This document shows, in pieces, positions 17,549 through 51,358 of a stretch of 64,000 nucleotides of DNA. Source of the stretch: Escherichia coli (GTDB taxonomy: Bacteria > Pseudomonadota > Gammaproteobacteria > Enterobacterales > Enterobacteriaceae); NCBI RefSeq assembly GCF_001677475.2, contig NZ_CP015229.1, one strand, 5' to 3'. The position numbers were made by a program, and so were the translations under genes. The notes under the pieces are model-generated. The model worked only from the letters and a program-made list of their open reading frames with translations, did no database searches and had not been told where the DNA came from. Numbering within the stretch: the stretch's first letter is position 1; the number at the start of each line of letters is the position of its first letter.

Positions 17549-18667
17549 TTATTCTCCCCGTGAGTCAGCGTTATCTTTCTTTTGCTGACGACCCAGTTCA
17601 CGCACCGCCATCACGCTGACACCGGCAACCAGCCCAACCACACCGCCGAGCAAACCGATAGCGCCTGCAGAGACGTTGCCGCCCTCTTTAGCGTTAACAT
17701 CCGGTTTCTGCGAACGCGGAGTCTGGTTTTCGACGTTGGCAAGCTGATGGATGCCTTTATGGAAGCCGATACCTTCTTCGTTACAGCCATAGCACGGGTG
17801 ACCAATCGCCACCGGCCACACACCACCAACATCGCAGAATTGCAGCGTTGAGCAGTTGCCGTAAGTTTCTGGCCCTTTACAGCCGAGGTGGTACAGGCAC
17901 CAGCCTTCGCGGTGGCCTTCATCACCGAACTCTTTGGCAAAACGACCAGCATCGAAGTGCGGGCGGCGTTCGCAGTGTTCGTGAATCAGACGGCCATAGG
18001 CGAAAGTCGGACGGTTTTTGTCATCCAGTTTCGGCGGTTTGCCGTAAGTGATGATGTGCGCAACGGTCGCGAGGAAGTTGTGCGGGTTCGGTGGGCAGCC
18101 CGGAATGTTGATAACGGTTTTGCCCGGCAGAACTTCTTGCAGGCTGACAGCGCCAGTTGGGTTAACTCCAGCTGCGGCAACACCGCCCCACGCAGAGCAG
18201 GAACCGATAGCGATAATGGCTGCTGCGCCTTCCGCCGCTTTGCGGATGTGATCCACAATCGGCTCACCGGCAACCATGCAATAAATACCGTTATCTTTTA
18301 ATGGGATGGAACCATCCACCACTAACACATACTGCCCTTTGTACTTCTCGAGAGCGTTATGTTTGTTCTCTTCGACCTGATGACCGAAGGCGGCGGAAAG
18401 CACTTCGTGATACTCCAGAGAGATAGTCTCCAGTACGAGGTTTTCTACTGTTGGATGCGTTGCACGAAGCAGAGATTCCGTACAACCGGTGCACTCCTGC
18501 GCGCCAATCCAGATAACTGGCGGACGCTGCGGGTTAGTAACCGATTCGGCCATCTCTGCAGCGGCTTTGCTACTTAACCCCATGGTGGCGGCTAATGCTG
18601 CACAAAGCTTCATGAAATCACGACGGTTAATGCCGTGAGAATGGATGAGGGTGTTATCTCCAGTCAT
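17549..18667 (-). CDS. hybO: [NiFe] hydrogenase-2 small subunit (372 aa)
   Basis: Twin-arginine signal INRRDFMK and Fe-S cysteine ligands. Confidence 0.96.
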
Positions 18668-18855
18668 TTATAGTTATTCCGTTGCGAAGACCTGGCATAT
18701 ATTTTGCCTCAATCGCAAAATCAATAATGCGATCGATGCGCCATTTACCACACATTTATTATGGTTATCGATATCATGATACTGCGGCGGGGCGCTAAAA
18801 CGAAGGGAAGAAGCATTAGTGTAATTAATTAAAGCAAGATAATACGTATGTTTGA
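18668..18855 (-). promoter_or_regulatory. hyb operon promoter / 5' leader region
   Basis: Intergenic AT-rich stretch upstream of hybO and downstream of yghW. Confidence 0.4.
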
Positions 18856-19143: not shown

Positions 19144-19261
19144 CGTTCACCTCATTCGCTATATATTATCATATATAGCGATATTTTAGGCAAAGAACGA
19201 CTTTTGCGCACGCTATTTTTTCATGCTTGTTTAAGACGTAATCCCGTAAGAGATAAACCTA

Positions 19262-24160: not shown

Positions 24161-24411
24161 TGTGTATCTCCAGGACGCAAGTCACAAAATCTGCGCATAA
24201 TAATATCAAAACGACGTCGAATTGATAGTCGTTCTCATTACTATTTGCATACTGCCGTACCTTTGCTTTCTTTTCCTTGCGTTTACGCAGTAAAAAAGTC
24301 ACCAGCACGCCATTTGCGAAAATTTTCTGCTTTATGCCAATTCTTCAGGATGCGCCCGCGAATATTCATGCTAGTTTAGACATCCAGACGTATAAAAACA
24401 GGAATCCCGAC
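24161..24411. promoter_or_regulatory. Divergent exbB / metC promoter region with Fur-box-like AT-rich motifs
   Basis: gcataataatatcaaaac and tgatagtcgttctcattac resemble Fur-box half-sites; exbBD is Fur-regulated in E. coli. Confidence 0.4.
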
Positions 24412-43085: not shown

Positions 43086-43194
43086 GGGTAAGACTTTTGC
43101 TAAATTCGCAAAAGACTTTGCACATTTTGCTAATTTCACCGTACCGCTCTGTGACGTACTATAGTCGACAAACGTCTCACCTTGAGGTTAAAAA

Positions 43195-44165: not shown

Positions 44166-45053
44166 TTAGCCATTCTTTCTTCCCGTTTTCAAACCCCGAT
44201 GGAAATCGTTAATTCGCTTAATGGTTTTAACCGCACGCTGCGGCATCGCGGAAGCCACCGACCAGACAATCATTTCCAGGCACAACAATACCGTACCATG
44301 TAGTGGCGTTTTCCCCTTTTCATCCCCGCGCGGAACATGAATCACGATACTGGCGTCTTTGCTAAAACGTGAATCCAGCGCGTTTGTCAGCAAAATAACA
44401 GGGATCCCCAGCCGCCTCGCCTCACGAAGCGTTGTCAGCCCTTCCCGGTGCGCAGATTTTTGCGCCATCATGATCAGAACATCGCCACGTTGAAGCGCGA
44501 TCAGTTGCTCGGCAAGGCCAATACCCGTACGGTTTAGTGCCGTGGCAGGCAAACCTATGCGGTTGAATAGTCGTGCGGTATAGTCCGCCAGAATACCCGA
44601 AGCGCCAATGCCAAAAATTGCGACTTGCCGTGCCTGCACCAACAACGCTACCGCTTGCGCAAGCGCGTGGCGGTTTTCAGGCTCTGACAGGACATTACAA
44701 GTATACAAATGCCCTTCAAGAACAAAGTCGATTGCGGTGTTAACATCGCTCGTCAAGTTACTCACCGTCGTAGACATCTTTTCGCTGGAACTAAGGGCTG
44801 GACCAAGCCACTGTTCCAGAGTGCGTCTCAGATCACGCAGCCCGGCAAACCCCAGAGCCTGTATAGCCCTGATAACTGTGGCATCGGAAGTGTTCAACGT
44901 GGCCGCAATTTCCATCGCCGTTTGCTCGAGTACCACTTCACGATGCTCATTAATGTAGCTTGCGACAGCTCTTAACCCAGGCGTTAACTGACTCGCGCGA
45001 GTGCGAAAACGCTCACCATAAATATCAACCCGCGTTTTGTCTTTCTGGATCAT
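44166..45053 (-). CDS. RpiR/MurR-family transcriptional regulator, HTH plus SIS domain (295 aa); candidate regulator of the adjacent iron-uptake genes
   Basis: N-terminal HTH (TAMEIAATLNTSDATVIRAIQALGFAGLRDL) and C-terminal sugar-isomerase-type domain; start overlaps the upstream SBP gene stop (4 nt). Confidence 0.8.
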   Translation of the reverse strand: MIQKDKTRVDIYGERFRTRASQLTPGLRAVASYINEHREVVLEQTAMEIAATLNTSDATVIRAIQALGFAGLRDLRRTLEQWLGPALSSSEKMSTTVSNLTSDVNTAIDFVLEGHLYTCNVLSEPENRHALAQAVALLVQARQVAIFGIGASGILADYTARLFNRIGLPATALNRTGIGLAEQLIALQRGDVLIMMAQKSAHREGLTTLREARRLGIPVILLTNALDSRFSKDASIVIHVPRGDEKGKTPLHGTVLLCLEMIVWSVASAMPQRAVKTIKRINDFHRGLKTGRKNG

Positions 45054-45997
45054 TTAGCCTCCGGTAGAGGTCGTCCCGCAATTTGTGATTGTATCTGCGC
45101 AGCCATCAGCCCCAGAGATGCAAAGGAGTTAGAAATCGCCTCTTCACGAGAAATCAGCACATAGCGCCCGGAACGACAGGCCGTCAGAAACTGACACCAT
45201 CCCGGCATGACTTTTTCCATTGCTGCCAGCTCATCCTGAGGTTTACCACCGGTGTCACCGCGCCAGGTTGCAAAAACAAAATCGGCATCCAGTTCAGGTA
45301 AACGCTCTGCGCTCACATCCATTCGCCCACCTTCAGGAATGCTCTCAATCAGCGGCGGAAAGCGAAAACCAGCATCGCGTAATACCCGCCCCAGCGAATG
45401 ATAGCTATGCATCACATTAATTTTTCCCTGATTTGCCTGAATCACCGATACCGTTATTTTTTGGCTGTCCAGCGTCGCCTTCAGCGCATTGATTTGTGCC
45501 TGATAGCGGCGTTCAAGTATCGCCAGCTGCGACTGCGTTCCTGTAAGTTCTGCCAGCTTGCGGTAGATTTCTGGCGCGCCTCCTTTGAGATGATCAATGC
45601 TCACCGTGGGCGCAATTTTTTCCAGTTGTTCAATGGGCGTATTACGGGTCGGTTCTGTGATGATCAGGTCAGGCTTTGCCGCCACAATCGCTTCAATATC
45701 AATATCAGCGGTGCCAATAAAAGCGATCGATGAATTATCAAAGTCGACACCTGTCAATAACGCGCCTGATCGAATGAAATGGCTACCGTCAGGCCGGGTT
45801 CGCCCGTGGCTGGCGACAGGAGGTACACCGAGCTCAATCAGAGGAATAGTGATATCAAGATCGTGTAAAGAGACAATTCTCTTTGGATGAGCAGGAACAG
45901 TGACTTTGCGCCCTAAATCATCAGTAAAGACCTGAACAGGTTCTGTCGCGCGGGCAAAGAATGACAACAGTATCAGCAGAGAAAAAAATAAACGCAT
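45050..45997 (-). CDS. Periplasmic iron-siderophore ABC substrate-binding protein, FecB/FhuD-like
   Basis: Signal peptide MRLFFSLLILLSFFARA; cluster-8 SBP architecture. Start at Met22 of track ORF to avoid overlap with the upstream permease. Confidence 0.8.
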   Translation of the reverse strand: MRLFFSLLILLSFFARATEPVQVFTDDLGRKVTVPAHPKRIVSLHDLDITIPLIELGVPPVASHGRTRPDGSHFIRSGALLTGVDFDNSSIAFIGTADIDIEAIVAAKPDLIITEPTRNTPIEQLEKIAPTVSIDHLKGGAPEIYRKLAELTGTQSQLAILERRYQAQINALKATLDSQKITVSVIQANQGKINVMHSYHSLGRVLRDAGFRFPPLIESIPEGGRMDVSAERLPELDADFVFATWRGDTGGKPQDELAAMEKVMPGWCQFLTACRSGRYVLISREEAISNSFASLGLMAAQIQSQIAGRPLPEAK

Positions 45998-46007
45998 ATA
46001 ACTCCCA

Positions 46008-47057
46008 TTAAAAACTGTTCCTGCGCTGCCAGAGCAGTAGCAAAAAGAATGGTCCACCAATCAATGAAATAATGATTCCGGCAGGCAGTTGCAAAGGCAA
46101 AAAAGCCAAACGACCAATGCTATCCGCCAGGATGACTAACAACGCCCCCGATACGGCGCTCCCCAGCAGTAATGTCGTCTGCCCGCCACGTAGAATAAAA
46201 CGTGATATATGGGGTGCTATCAATCCGACAAAACCGATGTTACCAACACACGAAACGCAGACGGCTGTCAGGATTATTGGTGCGGCGACACGTAACAACG
46301 CCAGACGAGAACTATTCACCCCTAACCCGGTTGCAACCTGATGACCAAGCAGAGCGATATCCGCCGTCCTGGCGGTGAACAGCAATAAAAGAGCGGCTGG
46401 CAACATCCAACAGGCTGAAATACCGACTAACATCCAGTTAGCTGCATGCAGGCTTCCCGATAACCACATCAATGCAGTTTGTACATCTCGAACATCTGCA
46501 GTGGTCATAAATACACCGATACCGGCGGCGAAAAACCAGGAAACACCAATACCAATCAGAACAAATCGCGGGCGGGAAATATCGCGTGCACAAAAAATCA
46601 CGATTAAAGCCACCAACAAGCCACCAGCAAGACCAGCCACTGGACGCCAGAACATTCCCAGCATTGGAAACTGGAAGATCAGCCACAGCACCGCCACGCT
46701 ACATCCTTCTTTGACGCCGATTAAACCAGGATCGGCAAGGCCGTTACGCGCAATGGATTGCATCGCGGCCCCCGCCATACCTAACATGGCTCCGCATAGC
46801 AATGCCATGATGACTCTCGGCAAGCGAATATCCTGCACAATATAACGTGCGTCTGTGCTTACGTTTTCTGGAGCAAACAACGCTCGTCCTACTTCCGATG
46901 CCGGGACAGAAAAAGAACCATGCATCAGACCGAATATCAGTATTCCAACCGCAAACAGAAACAGCCCACCAAGCAACACCAGATTTTTAGGGCGTACCAG
47001 TGTCGAAAACTTACCAACACGTAGTGGACGTAGCCCGACGTTCATTATCCGACTCAT
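46008..47057 (-). CDS. Iron-siderophore ABC permease, FecCD family (349 aa)
   Basis: Polytopic membrane protein with FecCD-type glycine-rich helices. Confidence 0.85.
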   Translation of the reverse strand: MSRIMNVGLRPLRVGKFSTLVRPKNLVLLGGLFLFAVGILIFGLMHGSFSVPASEVGRALFAPENVSTDARYIVQDIRLPRVIMALLCGAMLGMAGAAMQSIARNGLADPGLIGVKEGCSVAVLWLIFQFPMLGMFWRPVAGLAGGLLVALIVIFCARDISRPRFVLIGIGVSWFFAAGIGVFMTTADVRDVQTALMWLSGSLHAANWMLVGISACWMLPAALLLLFTARTADIALLGHQVATGLGVNSSRLALLRVAAPIILTAVCVSCVGNIGFVGLIAPHISRFILRGGQTTLLLGSAVSGALLVILADSIGRLAFLPLQLPAGIIISLIGGPFFLLLLWQRRNSF

Positions 47058-48037
47058 TTGAACATCCTCGTCGCCATAATGACAAAAACAGGCGCACCAA
47101 CTAACGCCGTCATGACACCGGTCGCTAACTCATGGGGCGTGAAAAGCGTCCGAGCAATAATATCTGCCAGTAATAACAAAAGCGCGCCGACACAAGCTGA
47201 AAGAGGGAGCAGAACGCGCAGATCCGCTGATACCAGACGCCTGACAATCTGCGGTACTAGCAGGCCGACAAAACCAATGGGGCCAGCAATCGATACGGCT
47301 GCGCCACAGAGCAACGCGATCGCAAGCAGAGTGAATGTTCGCGTGCGGAGTACCGAGACGCCCAGCCCCTGCGCCATGCGATCACCCAGTGCCAACATGT
47401 TAAGAGAGGGCGCAAGGTAAATGGCTAACACAACCCCCCCCAGAGAAAACCAGGCGGACGTACCCAGCGTCGCCCAATCCTGCCCCGCTAAATCACCTGC
47501 TAGCCATGTCCGCATCGCCAGCAGTGTTTGTTCGTCAAGAATCAGGATTGCAGCCGTTATTGAGGACACGAACGCCGATAGCGCCACGCCGCATAAAGTA
47601 ACTTTCATTGGCGTTAACCCTGAACGCCCTGCGGAGGAAAGCAGCAATATCAACAGGAACAATAACGCGCCCCCCGTAGATGCCAGCAGTGGGCGTCCAA
47701 CCGGAAAGGCCAGTCCAAGCGCACTGGCGGCAACGACAGCAAGAGCGGCTCCGGCATTTAAGCCTAAAATATGTGGCTCCCCCAATGGGTTACGAATGAC
47801 AGCCTGCAACAAAGCACCAGCAACTCCAAGAGAAGCACCGGTAAGCAATGCTGCCGCTAAACGCGGCAAACGGAGTCTTACAATTACGTTGTGATCGAAG
47901 TTTTGCGGTTCAAAATGAAGAAATGCCTGCAACACCGTTTGTGGTGCAATAAATCGGGCACCAATCCCTGGATATACCACGCATCCCACCAGCAGTAAGG
48001 CGAGGAAAATTACAGTAACCAGCCCTGTGCGCATCAT
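47054..48037 (-). CDS. Iron-siderophore ABC permease, FecCD family (327 aa)
   Basis: Paralogous to the adjacent permease; 4-nt overlaps on both sides. Confidence 0.85.
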   Translation of the reverse strand: MMRTGLVTVIFLALLLVGCVVYPGIGARFIAPQTVLQAFLHFEPQNFDHNVIVRLRLPRLAAALLTGASLGVAGALLQAVIRNPLGEPHILGLNAGAALAVVAASALGLAFPVGRPLLASTGGALLFLLILLLSSAGRSGLTPMKVTLCGVALSAFVSSITAAILILDEQTLLAMRTWLAGDLAGQDWATLGTSAWFSLGGVVLAIYLAPSLNMLALGDRMAQGLGVSVLRTRTFTLLAIALLCGAAVSIAGPIGFVGLLVPQIVRRLVSADLRVLLPLSACVGALLLLLADIIARTLFTPHELATGVMTALVGAPVFVIMATRMFK

Positions 48038-48843
48038 ACTTTTTCTACACCACGAAACGGCATGAAGAACGGCTTTCCCGTCAGAGGATTTATTGATGCG
48101 TGAACATCAACGTCAAAGACAGCTTTTACCAGCTCAGGCGTGCAATGCTCCCCCTCATTCAACACACGCACCACTTTCCCCTGGCGTAAAAATATCAACG
48201 TATCGCCATAATTGACGGCAAAATTCAGATCATGCAACACCACGACGACTGTACGCCCGTGATGACGCGTTAAGTCATGTAATAACTCAAGAATTTCAAC
48301 CTGATAACGTAAATCAAGCCAGGTTGTGGGTTCATCCAGCAGGATATAAGGCGTCTTTTGCGCCAACACCATCGCAATCCAGCAACGCTGGCGCTGCCCA
48401 CCAGAGAGTTTTTCAACCGGTAAATGTGCAAACTCCTGCGTACCGGTTAATTTCAGGGCCTCTTCTACCGCCTGCTCGTCGGCGTCGCTCCATTGACGTA
48501 TGAAATTTTGCCAGGGAAAACGCCCACGCGACACCAGTTCATAAACGGTTAAGCCCTCCGGCAATAATGGCGACTGCGGCAAGATCCCAAGTCTACGGGA
48601 TAACGCTTTCGTTGGTTGCTCGTGAATCGCTTTACCATCCAGCAATATAGAGCCGCCCATAGGCTGCAAGATACGTGCAATGGTGCTGAGCAACGTCGAC
48701 TTTCCACAGCCGTTTGCCCCAACCAGAACGGTCATTTTTTCTGTGGGAACGGAGAAAGAAACACCATCAACAATGATCTTCTTGTGATACCCGGCAGAAA
48801 CATTGTCGAGGATCAGCCCCTGCCCTTTTGCGTTATGTGCCAC
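48034..48843 (-). CDS. Iron-siderophore ABC ATPase, FecE/FepC-like (269 aa)
   Basis: Walker A GANGCGKST, signature LSGGQRQR, Walker B ILLDEP. Confidence 0.9.
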   Translation of the reverse strand: MAHNAKGQGLILDNVSAGYHKKIIVDGVSFSVPTEKMTVLVGANGCGKSTLLSTIARILQPMGGSILLDGKAIHEQPTKALSRRLGILPQSPLLPEGLTVYELVSRGRFPWQNFIRQWSDADEQAVEEALKLTGTQEFAHLPVEKLSGGQRQRCWIAMVLAQKTPYILLDEPTTWLDLRYQVEILELLHDLTRHHGRTVVVVLHDLNFAVNYGDTLIFLRQGKVVRVLNEGEHCTPELVKAVFDVDVHASINPLTGKPFFMPFRGVEKV

Positions 48844-49216
48844 GTGTACGCCAACTTAATCAAAGACAAACAAAAATAAAACTCATTCTCTTTTGAGAGT
48901 TTGACGCCACAAAATGTAGTAGTCAAGAAGTTAAAATCCATACAAAAACAAGGTAAATAACAGGTGAAATATTTTTAAAGATAAAAATAAAATCATTAAA
49001 TATTAATAAATTACCATCAATTAAATTGCATTAACCTCTCATAAAAACACATGTAGCAATTTTTTGTTATTTCTCATTTACTACTACATTACCGCATGGT
49101 TGAATGATTCTCAATTACATATCCGATGGTGAAATAACAAACGGATAGTGCTTAGTGAGCAACAAGAAACAATTTTCACTCACGACAATCCGTGAGTTTT
49201 TGGGATAACAGACTAA
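48844..49216. promoter_or_regulatory. AT-rich divergent promoter region of the iron-uptake island with candidate Fur boxes
   Basis: 373-bp AT-rich spacer; ttgaatgattctcaattac and aaaatcattaaatattaat resemble the Fur-box consensus. Confidence 0.45.
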
Positions 49217-51358
49217 ATGGCTAAGTTCACACCTTCATTCTCAGGAATCAAAGGTCGGGCGCTCTTTTCACTGCTCTTTGCAGCACCGATGATTCATGCA
49301 ACCGACACTGCAACGACCAAAGATGGCGAAACAATCACTGTTACAGCGGATGCAAATACCGCAACTGAGGCGACCGATGGTTATCAACCTCTGAGCACCT
49401 CCACGGCGACATTAACCGATATGCCGATGCTGGATATCCCGCAAGTGGTCAATACGGTTAGCGATCAGGTTCTGGAAAATCAGAATGCGACGACGCTGGA
49501 TGAGGCACTTTATAACGTCAGTAACGTGGTACAGACCAATACATTAGGCGGAACTCAGGACGCCTTTGTACGTCGTGGGTTTGGTGCTAACCGGGATGGC
49601 TCCATCCTGACCAACGGTCTGCGAACCGTACTTCCTCGCAGCTTCAACGCTGCAACAGAACGTGTGGAAGTGCTAAAAGGCCCGGCCTCCACGCTGTATG
49701 GCATTCTTGATCCTGGCGGACTGATTAACGTCGTGACAAAGCGCCCGGAAAAAACATTCCATGGTTCTGTATCAGCCACGTCCTCCAGTTTTGGCGGAGG
49801 CACTGGGCAACTGGATATCACAGGTCCCATTGAAGGCACTCAGCTGGCATACCGCCTGACGGGGGAAGTGCAGGATGAAGATTACTGGCGGAATTTCGGT
49901 AAAGAGCGCAGCACATTTATTGCCCCATCACTCACCTGGTTTGGTGATAATGCAACAGTAACCATGCTCTATTCACATCGGGATTATAAAACGCCGTTCG
50001 ATCGTGGAACGATTTTCGACCTTACGACGAAACAGCCCGTAAACGTTGATCGAAAAATACGTTTCGACGAACCGTTTAATATTACAGATGGTCAGTCCGA
50101 TCTGGCGCAACTCAACGCAGAATATCATCTCAATAGCCAGTGGACAGCGCGCTTTGATTACAGCTACAGCCAGGATAAATACAGCGATAATCAGGCTCGT
50201 GTTACCGCGTATGATGCAACGACAGGAACGCTGACACGGCGTGTTGATGCAACTCAGGGATCTACCCAGCGTATGCATTCTACTCGTGCGGATCTACAAG
50301 GGAATGTTGATATTGCTGGATTCTATAATGAGATTCTGGGTGGGGTGTCATATGAATATTATGATCTTCTGCGGACAGATATGATCCGCTGTAAAAACGC
50401 TAAAGATTTCAATATCTACAACCCTGTTTATGGCAATACCAGCAAATGCACAACGGTCTCGGCGTCGGACAGCGATCAGACGATCAAACAAGAGAGCTAC
50501 TCAGCATATGCGCAAGATGCGCTCTATCTGACCGATAACTGGATTGCCGTCGCTGGGATCCGCTATCAGTATTACACGCAGTATGCGGGTAAAGGCCGTC
50601 CTTTTAATGTCAATACTGACAGCCGCGATGAACAATGGACGCCCAAACTGGGGTTGGTCTACAAACTGACGCCATCGGTATCCTTATTTGCCAATTATTC
50701 GCAAACATTTATGCCGCAATCGTCAATTGCCAGCTACATTGGCGATCTTCCACCGGAATCATCTAATGCTTACGAAGTCGGGGCAAAAGTCGAGCTGTTC
50801 GATGGTATAACCGCAGATATTGCGCTGTTTGATATCCATAAACGTAACGTGTTGTATACCGAAAGTATTGGTGATGAAACCATCGCCAAAACGGCAGGCC
50901 GCGTTCGTTCAAGAGGGGTAGAAGTCGACCTTGCGGGAGCATTAACTGAAAACATTAATATCATTGCCAGCTACGGCTATACCGATGCTAAGGTTCTGGA
51001 AGATCCTGATTATGCAGGGAAACCATTGCCGAATGTTCCTCGTCATACCGGTTCGCTATTCCTGACCTATAACATTCATAACATGCCAGGCAATAACACA
51101 CTGACGTTTGGCGGTGGTGGACATGGCGTAAGCCGTCGTTCGGCAACCAATGGGGCTGACTATTATCTGCCAGGCTATTTCGTTGCCGATGCCTTCGCCG
51201 CATACAAAATGAAATTGCAGTATCCGGTCACACTGCAATTAAACGTCAAAAACCTATTTGATAAAACGTATTACACCTCTTCCATCGCCACAAATAATCT
51301 GGGGAATCAGATTGGCGATCCGCGTGAAGTGCAATTCACGGTGAAAATGGAATTTTGA
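49217..51358 (+). CDS. TonB-dependent outer membrane siderophore receptor (713 aa)
   Basis: TonB box ETITVTA after the signal peptide; plug domain and C-terminal aromatic terminus (VKMEF). Confidence 0.9.
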   Translation: MAKFTPSFSGIKGRALFSLLFAAPMIHATDTATTKDGETITVTADANTATEATDGYQPLSTSTATLTDMPMLDIPQVVNTVSDQVLENQNATTLDEALYNVSNVVQTNTLGGTQDAFVRRGFGANRDGSILTNGLRTVLPRSFNAATERVEVLKGPASTLYGILDPGGLINVVTKRPEKTFHGSVSATSSSFGGGTGQLDITGPIEGTQLAYRLTGEVQDEDYWRNFGKERSTFIAPSLTWFGDNATVTMLYSHRDYKTPFDRGTIFDLTTKQPVNVDRKIRFDEPFNITDGQSDLAQLNAEYHLNSQWTARFDYSYSQDKYSDNQARVTAYDATTGTLTRRVDATQGSTQRMHSTRADLQGNVDIAGFYNEILGGVSYEYYDLLRTDMIRCKNAKDFNIYNPVYGNTSKCTTVSASDSDQTIKQESYSAYAQDALYLTDNWIAVAGIRYQYYTQYAGKGRPFNVNTDSRDEQWTPKLGLVYKLTPSVSLFANYSQTFMPQSSIASYIGDLPPESSNAYEVGAKVELFDGITADIALFDIHKRNVLYTESIGDETIAKTAGRVRSRGVEVDLAGALTENINIIASYGYTDAKVLEDPDYAGKPLPNVPRHTGSLFLTYNIHNMPGNNTLTFGGGGHGVSRRSATNGADYYLPGYFVADAFAAYKMKLQYPVTLQLNVKNLFDKTYYTSSIATNNLGNQIGDPREVQFTVKMEF

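Follow-up and report, generated by a model that had tools for sequence, protein, structure and literature searches.

The 64-kb stretch of DNA analyzed here (the window) carries, between ygiN and parE, a block of genes that matches the fit iron-siderophore uptake island in gene content and order. A siderophore receptor gene is divergently transcribed from an operon for an ATPase, two permeases, a binding protein and an RpiR-type regulator, and the locus, the gene order and the ygiN/parE insertion site are those of the E. coli fit system (c3770-c3775 in CFT073, ECs3912-3917 in Sakai). Open reading frames and family matches identify fitC and fitD as FecCD-type permeases and fitE as a siderophore-binding protein. 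The gene names (fitA, receptor; fitB, ATPase; fitC and fitD, permeases; fitE, binding protein; fitR, repressor) follow published usage (PMC2593036). The genes on either side of the promoter region are as follows.

44166-48843, minus strand: operon fitB, fitC, fitD, fitE, fitR (c3774-c3770 in CFT073)
44166-45053, minus strand: fitR, encoding an RpiR/MurR-family repressor (profile match)
48034-48843, minus strand: fitB, encoding the ABC ATPase, an open reading frame with a GTG start
49217-51358, plus strand: fitA, encoding a TonB-dependent siderophore receptor of 713 amino acids (c3775 in CFT073)

The fitB-fitA intergenic region, which is the bidirectional fit promoter region, occupies 48844-49216. 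The first-pass annotation of this DNA had described a strongly AT-rich spacer of 373 bp between the ATPase and receptor genes, and both points are exact: the spacer is 373 bp long and has a GC content of 29.5%, versus 51.2% for the window. The same length is found in CFT073, 042 and Sakai, whose spacers differ from that of the window at 25, 8 and 6 positions, respectively, Sakai being the closest. Of 5426 complete E. coli genomes, 1870 have the fit promoter region, so that fit is a siderophore uptake island of about a third of them; it is expressed in urine. In the best E. coli match the RefSeq annotation agrees with fit and identity across the promoter region is 98.9%. Since identity to any complete E. 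coli genome is at most 98.9% at the fit promoter and at most 98.8% at parE, the window belongs to an Escherichia lineage that lies just beyond the complete genomes sampled. Elsewhere in the window, the gap between qseC and mdaB is only about 110 bp (43086-43194); in the best match, E. coli TUM14771, about 1.8 kb lies between these genes and holds ygiZ, a hypothetical gene and an Hcp-family type VI secretion gene.

The fit iron transport system of E. coli was reportedly described by Ouyang and Isaacson in 2006 and 2008. Control of fit by Fur has been in print since 2006-2008 and was confirmed genome-wide in 2020 and 2023, so there is little at stake in the claim that Fur acts here. For instance, fitA is up 23-fold in a fur mutant, lacZ fusions to both promoters are induced by iron limitation, and FitR shifts a 347-bp spacer fragment; the same report states that the exact Fur and FitR sites are still to be identified (PMC2593036). 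In CFT073, RNA of c3774-c3770 is up 5.7 to 2.3-fold and that of c3775 7.0-fold in a fur mutant relative to wild type (PMC7157518). Across three fit-carrying strains, the log2 change in fur mutants is 3.5-8.1 for fitA and 1.8-5.9 for fitB (PMC10164565). A paper on the outer membrane of AIEC mentions FitA and says nothing of its regulation. Fur control of fit, Fur occupancy at two places in the spacer and the FitR repressor are thus already known. What we add is a base-level placement of the Fur sites and promoters, which is inferred and unsurprising; it names two putative Fur operators and two predicted promoters and suggests why both directions respond to iron, and it is directly testable.

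The first-pass annotation had proposed that two 19-mers in the spacer, both resembling GATAATGATAATCATTATC, are Fur boxes. Both sequences exist, a few bases away from where they had been placed: ttgaatgattctcaattac lies at 49100-49118 (given as 49098-49116) and aaaatcattaaatattaat at 48989-49007 (given as 48985-49003). The first matches GATAATGATAATCATTATC at 12/19 positions, the second at only 9/19. Resemblance to the consensus is in itself no evidence in such AT-rich DNA, because the counts match those of shuffled sequence: the spacer has 39 positions with at least 9/19 matches versus approximately 41 in dinucleotide-preserving shuffles, and 3 positions with at least 12/19 versus approximately 1.25 (P = 0.155). 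By this measure the proposed boxes do no better than chance.

Since consensus counting failed to separate the spacer from shuffles, we used a weight matrix. The training set consisted of 16 Fur-regulated promoter regions from E. coli K-12 MG1655 (fepA-fes, fepD-entS, fepB-entC, fhuA, fhuE, cirA, fiu, fecI, fecA, tonB, fur, sufA, feoA, ryhB, fhuF and mntH). For motif discovery a 17th promoter was included, the exbB-metC spacer of the window (approximately 24161-24411), which was left out of the K-12-only matrix. Unseeded palindromic expectation-maximisation from 605 starting words on the 17 promoters converged on AATGATAATCATTATCATT (15 bits), which is the classical Fur box read 3 nt further along. 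When each known promoter is left out in turn, its best site scores a median of 14.0 bits (interquartile range 10.9-17.4), and the weakest are mntH (1.6 bits) and fur (3.6 bits). As an internal positive control, the held-out exbB box (ATTGATAGTCGTTCTCATT, 24221-24239) scores 14.0 bits and ranks first in the window; a CFT073 ChIP-seq summit (PMC7157518) and a ChIP-exo peak (PMC10164565) lie approximately 20-24 bp from its centre.

In the spacer the matrix points to two operators, listed here with the second of the two proposed 19-mers.

48869-48893, minus strand: Fur operator A, two overlapping 19-mers 6 bp apart, placed by matrix, conservation and ChIP
48989-49007: second proposed 19-mer, aaaatcattaaatattaat, unsupported as a Fur box
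49100-49121, plus strand: Fur operator B, TTGAATGATTCTCAATTACATA, made up of the first proposed 19-mer (49100-49118) and the matrix match at 49103-49121

The two 19-mers of operator A are AACAAAAATAAAACTCATT at 48869-48887 (12.5 bits with the K-12-only matrix) and AATAAAACTCATTCTCTTT at 48875-48893 (10.2 bits); on the fitB strand the operator reads AAAGAGAATGAGTTTTATTTTTGTT. Its left half-site lacks a G at position 4. Operator B scores 8.7 bits at 49103-49121, in a register shifted by 3 from the 19-mer that has 12/19 consensus matches. Among the roughly 64,000 positions of the window, the sites at 48869-48887, 48875-48893 and 49103-49121 rank 2, 4 and 8, so that the spacer holds three of the eight best matches. 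These scores exceed those of composition-matched shuffles of the spacer: a maximum of at least 12.5 bits has P = 0.018 and a third-best score of at least 8.7 bits has P = 0.0012. Taken singly, operator A is clearly a Fur box by sequence and operator B is marginal. Of the original proposal, then, the first 19-mer is retained as part of operator B and the second is not, scoring at most 3.5 bits; the strongest site in the spacer, operator A, had been missed. Additionally, the sites had been pictured as overlapping and serving both transcripts. We find instead two operators, approximately 229 bp apart from centre to centre, one at each promoter. The broader expectation, that Fur boxes in this divergent promoter place both transcripts under iron control, is borne out by matrix scores, conservation and the published fur-mutant and ChIP data, as is the iron-dependent expression, seen in the induced fusions and in the rise of both transcripts in fur mutants.

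Published maps of Fur binding place Fur at both operators. In CFT073, Fur ChIP-seq has two separate summits, at 3607777 for c3774 (height 2545) and at 3607979 for c3775 (height 2720), with heights elsewhere of 3050 (cirA), 2860 (entC/fepB) and 676 (exbB) (PMC7157518). The fit peaks are therefore comparable to those of cirA and entC/fepB and well above that of exbB. Given that the CFT073 spacer is also 373 bp, the summits map to 48904 and 49106 in the window. The centres of the matrix sites are offset from them by -20 and -26 bp at operator A and by +6 bp at operator B. For seven classical Fur promoters in the same data set the best-site centre lies between -24 and +30 bp from the summit, a calibration that sets peak resolution at tens of bp. 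In a Fur ChIP-exo study of nine strains, the fit peaks of CFT073, 042 and Sakai were confined to iron-replete cells (PMC10164565). The CFT073 peaks (3607758-70 and 3607968-80) correspond to window positions 48885-48897 and 49095-49107, and the 042 peaks (3539587-99 and 3539800-12) to 48882-48894 and 49095-49107. For Sakai we used only the spacing of 211 bp, as the listed coordinates would fall inside fitB in the assembly version compared.

The 042 data contain a third ChIP-exo peak (3539695-707), which maps to 48990-49002, over the second 19-mer (PMC10164565). CFT073 has no such peak, and the list for Sakai gives two fit peaks only, separated by 211 bp (PMC10164565). We considered the central peak as support for the second 19-mer and rejected it, as the 042 sequence differs from the window at two positions of the 19-mer, and the two peaks listed for Sakai, where this 19-mer is the same as in the window, have a spacing that suits the outer pair. 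The best matrix score at 48989-49007 is 3.5-4.6 bits in all four sequences (window, CFT073, 042 and Sakai), and the site falls in the unconserved centre of the spacer. The second 19-mer is thus unsupported as a Fur box, and low-affinity or bridging contacts may occur there.

Comparative analysis gives a further view of the spacer. A scan of one genome per species yielded 39 loci encoding a FitA relative (71-99% identity) in Escherichia, Enterobacter, Lelliottia, Silvania, Huaxiibacter, Citrobacter, Kosakonia, Kluyvera, Yokenella, Erwinia, Pantoea and Affinibrenneria, and fitB is divergent from fitA in all 39. A promoter and terminator scan of the spacer returned one unconserved promoter-like match (48964-48993) and zero terminators, no better than in shuffles; for this reason we preferred phylogenetic footprinting. 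In the alignment the centre of the spacer (approximately 48930-49070) is poorly conserved and four blocks are nearly invariant.

48870-48893: block 1, operator A
48915-48927: block 2, TGTAGTAGTCAAG
49077-49089: block 3, TTTACTACTACAT
49097-49119: block 4, TGnTTGAATGATTCTCAATTACA, operator B

From these blocks we predict one promoter in each direction.

48898-48926, minus strand: predicted PfitB, with -35 TTGACT (48926-48921), 17 nt, and -10 CAAACT (48903-48898)
49077-49105, plus strand: predicted PfitA, with -35 TTTACT (49077-49082), 17 nt, and -10 TTGAAT (49100-49105)

For PfitB, the -35 TTGACT is identical in 40 of 40 sequences and the 17-nt spacing is kept, and the -10 is CAnnnT in all 40 with variation at positions 3-5 (CAAACT in 19, CATGAT in 9, CAAAAT in 6, and others). 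For PfitA, TGg at 49097-49099 lies directly 5' of the -10 hexamer, and the extended -10 arrangement of a predicted sigma-70 promoter, TTTACT-N17(...TGn)-TTGAAT, is present in 40/40 sequences; TG is identical throughout, and n is A in 22, T in 12, G in 5 and C in 1. At both promoters, the division into fixed and drifting bases is the pattern expected of sigma-70 -35 and -10 elements with an extended -10. The PfitB start is expected near 48890-48892, which would place operator A on the downstream side of this start, at about +1 to +23, and not over the -35 and -10 hexamers. The PfitA start is expected near 49111-49114, so that operator B would run from inside the -10 to about +9. The operators also differ in how their scores hold up among the orthologous loci: the median is 14.3 bits for operator A across the 39 loci and 6.5 bits for operator B (range 2.1-11.5), with values as low as 2.1 bits in several Enterobacter. 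The core of operator B, TTGAATGATTCTCAATTACA, is nevertheless almost invariant over about 12 genera. This is more conservation than a degenerate Fur box needs; much of it may be owed to the -10, to the start and perhaps to FitR.

The coincidence of motifs with peaks, the matrix scores and the conservation across genera support two operators. Based on these data, we propose, with a probability of roughly 0.85, that the spacer holds two Fur operators, one per promoter, whose occupancy in iron-replete cells blocks initiation, and that FitR is an independent second repressor. The promoter hexamers, the starts and repression by occlusion are the parts of this model that we infer. In the proposed mechanism, two back-to-back sigma-70 promoters with starts approximately 220 bp apart would each have a Fur operator of their own. 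When iron is plentiful, Fe2+-Fur would sit on both operators and prevent productive open-complex formation by RNA polymerase; in iron-poor cells Fur would dissociate, and the fitA and fitBCDE-fitR transcripts would both be made. FitR would add a second, iron-independent layer of repression on the same DNA.

An alternative, which we consider unlikely, is that operator A is the only direct Fur site, with 49097-49121 conserved as the extended -10, the PfitA start and possibly a FitR operator, and with the Fur signal at B spreading cooperatively or looping from A. It would account for the low scores of operator B (8.7 bits here, 2.1-11.5 in orthologues) and for its coincidence, base for base, with the invariant -10 TTGAAT. 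FitR does bind somewhere in the spacer (PMC2593036), and the central ChIP-exo peak of 042, which has no good motif, indicates that signal without motif occurs in this region. However, spreading from A sits poorly with the finding, by two methods in three strains, of a resolved pair of peaks that are similar in height (2545 and 2720) and have 202-213 bp between them; in ChIP-seq the B peak is the taller. Furthermore, shuffled spacers would contain a match of at least 8.7 bits only about 0.14 times on average, and a GAATGAT half-site, similar to the one in operator A, is retained in the core of operator B. A second alternative, that the Fur-like 19-mers are chance matches in AT-rich island DNA and that iron control is indirect, for example via another Fur-controlled regulator, agrees with the consensus counts and with the second 19-mer, which is such a match, but is highly improbable in the face of in vivo Fur binding to the spacer, which is seen in three strains and is restricted to iron-replete cells, matrix scores that beat composition-matched shuffles, and two blocks conserved across genera in a spacer that is otherwise not.

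Two operators, each with its own promoter, would give fit the same layout as other Fur-controlled divergent loci. In chuA-chuT of CFT073 and in fepB-entC, as in fit, a receptor or transport gene faces a divergent operon with one Fur site per promoter; in chuA/chuT a strong box underlies each of two ChIP-seq summits, which are separated by 342 bp, and fepB-entC has two boxes approximately 115 bp apart. The fit boxes are weaker (12.5 and 8.7 bits) than those of chu (19.2 and 19.6) and fepB-entC (18.7 and 16.3), although ChIP heights are similar. Unlike these loci, fit has a dedicated second repressor, and its de-repression in the CFT073 RNA-seq data is a modest 2-7-fold compared to hundreds for ent and chu (PMC7157518). 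In fepA-fes and fepDGC-entS both directions are likewise Fur-controlled from one spacer. However, one summit coordinate serves both genes there, whereas fit has separate peaks and operators approximately 229 bp apart. The picture of overlapping sites therefore suits fepA-fes and not fit.

The remaining two nearly invariant blocks contain a pair of inverted 12-mers, each overlapping a predicted -35 element.

48915-48926, minus strand: invariant 12-mer TGTAGTAGTCAA (minus strand TTGACTACTACA), overlapping the predicted PfitB -35; candidate FitR contact
49077-49088, plus strand: invariant 12-mer TTTACTACTACA, the inverted partner, whose first half is the predicted PfitA -35

Within the 64-kb window ACTACTACA is found at these two places only, and every orthologous locus has exactly two copies; the gap from the 12-mer at 49077-49088 to TTGAAT is 11 nt in 39/39. 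FitR has the domain pattern of the RpiR/MurR/HexR family by profile match; this family represses divergent operons, and FitR binds the spacer (PMC2593036). The six invariant bases that the 12-mers place in the spacer of both promoters call for a binding protein, for which FitR is the obvious candidate. The 12-mers may be FitR contacts and, if so, the pair could explain how FitR represses both promoters. The start-to-start spacing of the 12-mers falls into two classes, 161-163 bp in 20 loci and 183-185 bp in 19, with unconserved DNA in between. The classes differ by two helical turns, an argument for phasing that is weak because the two length classes may reflect a single indel. The arrangement may represent a repression loop held by tetrameric FitR, or some other phase-dependent coupling of the two promoters. 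HexR-type operators have the half-sites TGTAAT/ATTACA. The invariant fit TGTAGT/ACTACA motifs resemble these half-sites; the fit 12-mers are 161-185 bp apart, whereas HexR-type operators form one compact palindrome.

Downstream of the predicted PfitA start, the fitA transcript would begin with a leader of approximately 105 nt (49112-49216, plus strand) that has two predicted hairpins.

49120-49147, plus strand: hairpin P1, with outer stem UAUCCG/CGGAUA and compensatory changes over about 12 genera
49178-49197, plus strand: hairpin P2, ACUCACG/CGUGAGU, followed by UUUU and GGGA to 49205, just before the ATG

The evidence for P1 is covariation. In its six outer pairs 90.8% of cells are paired, versus about 32% with slid partners, and 36 cells are changed on both sides, versus 11.7 in shuffles (0 of 500 reach the observed count). 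Applied to a plain MAFFT alignment, RNAalifold found the outer P1 stem and nothing else. Because indels scramble the alignment outside this stem, P2 rests on per-sequence folds: a hairpin at its position appears in the minimum free energy folds of nearly all 38 distinct orthologous leaders, whose sequences there are unrelated. A U run and GGGA come after this hairpin in most Enterobacteriaceae, the U run lying just ahead of the ribosome-binding site. Individual fold z-scores are modest, with a median of -1.6 for P1 and -1.2 for P2. As folded, P2 resembles a terminator or attenuator placed directly before the start codon; with a T run one residue too short, it does not pass the terminator scan. 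A search of Rfam covariance models against the fitA leader returned only chance-level matches to eukaryotic families, far below gathering scores.

Between P1 and P2 lies a conserved single-stranded motif (49157-49165, plus strand), GGGCAAUGA in most genera, with the variants GAGCAACAA in the window and GAGCAAUAA in CFT073. It is complementary to CAUUGCUC, the core of the iron-regulated small RNA RyhB. The complementarity spans 8 nt, for which we roughly estimate a chance of about 4% of occurring somewhere in RyhB, and RNAduplex with the full-length leader and RyhB gave meaningless global duplexes. In CFT073, c3775 RNA is up 7.0-fold in a fur mutant and 4.0-fold in a fur ryhB mutant, a ratio like that of cirA (PMC7157518). 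RyhB may thus activate fitA, which we regard as a lead with weak statistical support; if true, it could explain why fitA RNA is lower in the fur ryhB than in the fur mutant. We found no earlier description of the 12-mer pair or of a structured fitA leader. Taken together, coupling through the 12-mer pair and a structured leader with attenuation or small-RNA control would add to regulation by Fur and FitR, a combined proposal that we make tentatively and hold to be possible rather than probable.

Two further Fur-like regions in the window can be compared with published ChIP-exo peaks. Upstream of hybO/yghW, Fur matrix matches of 7-10 bits are found at 18754-18778, 18280-18298 and 19155-19173; the CFT073 ChIP-exo peak of the hyb operon at 3568360-72 (PMC10164565) would be roughly 130 bp from the best match if the genomes are colinear. 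The second region is within the receptor gene.

50687-50705: Fur-like site in the fitA coding region, TTTGCCAATTATTCGCAAA, 8.4 bits with the full matrix

Intragenic fitA ChIP-exo peaks of CFT073 (P125, 3609572-84) and 042 (P112, 3541405-17) map to approximately 50699-50712 in the window (PMC10164565).
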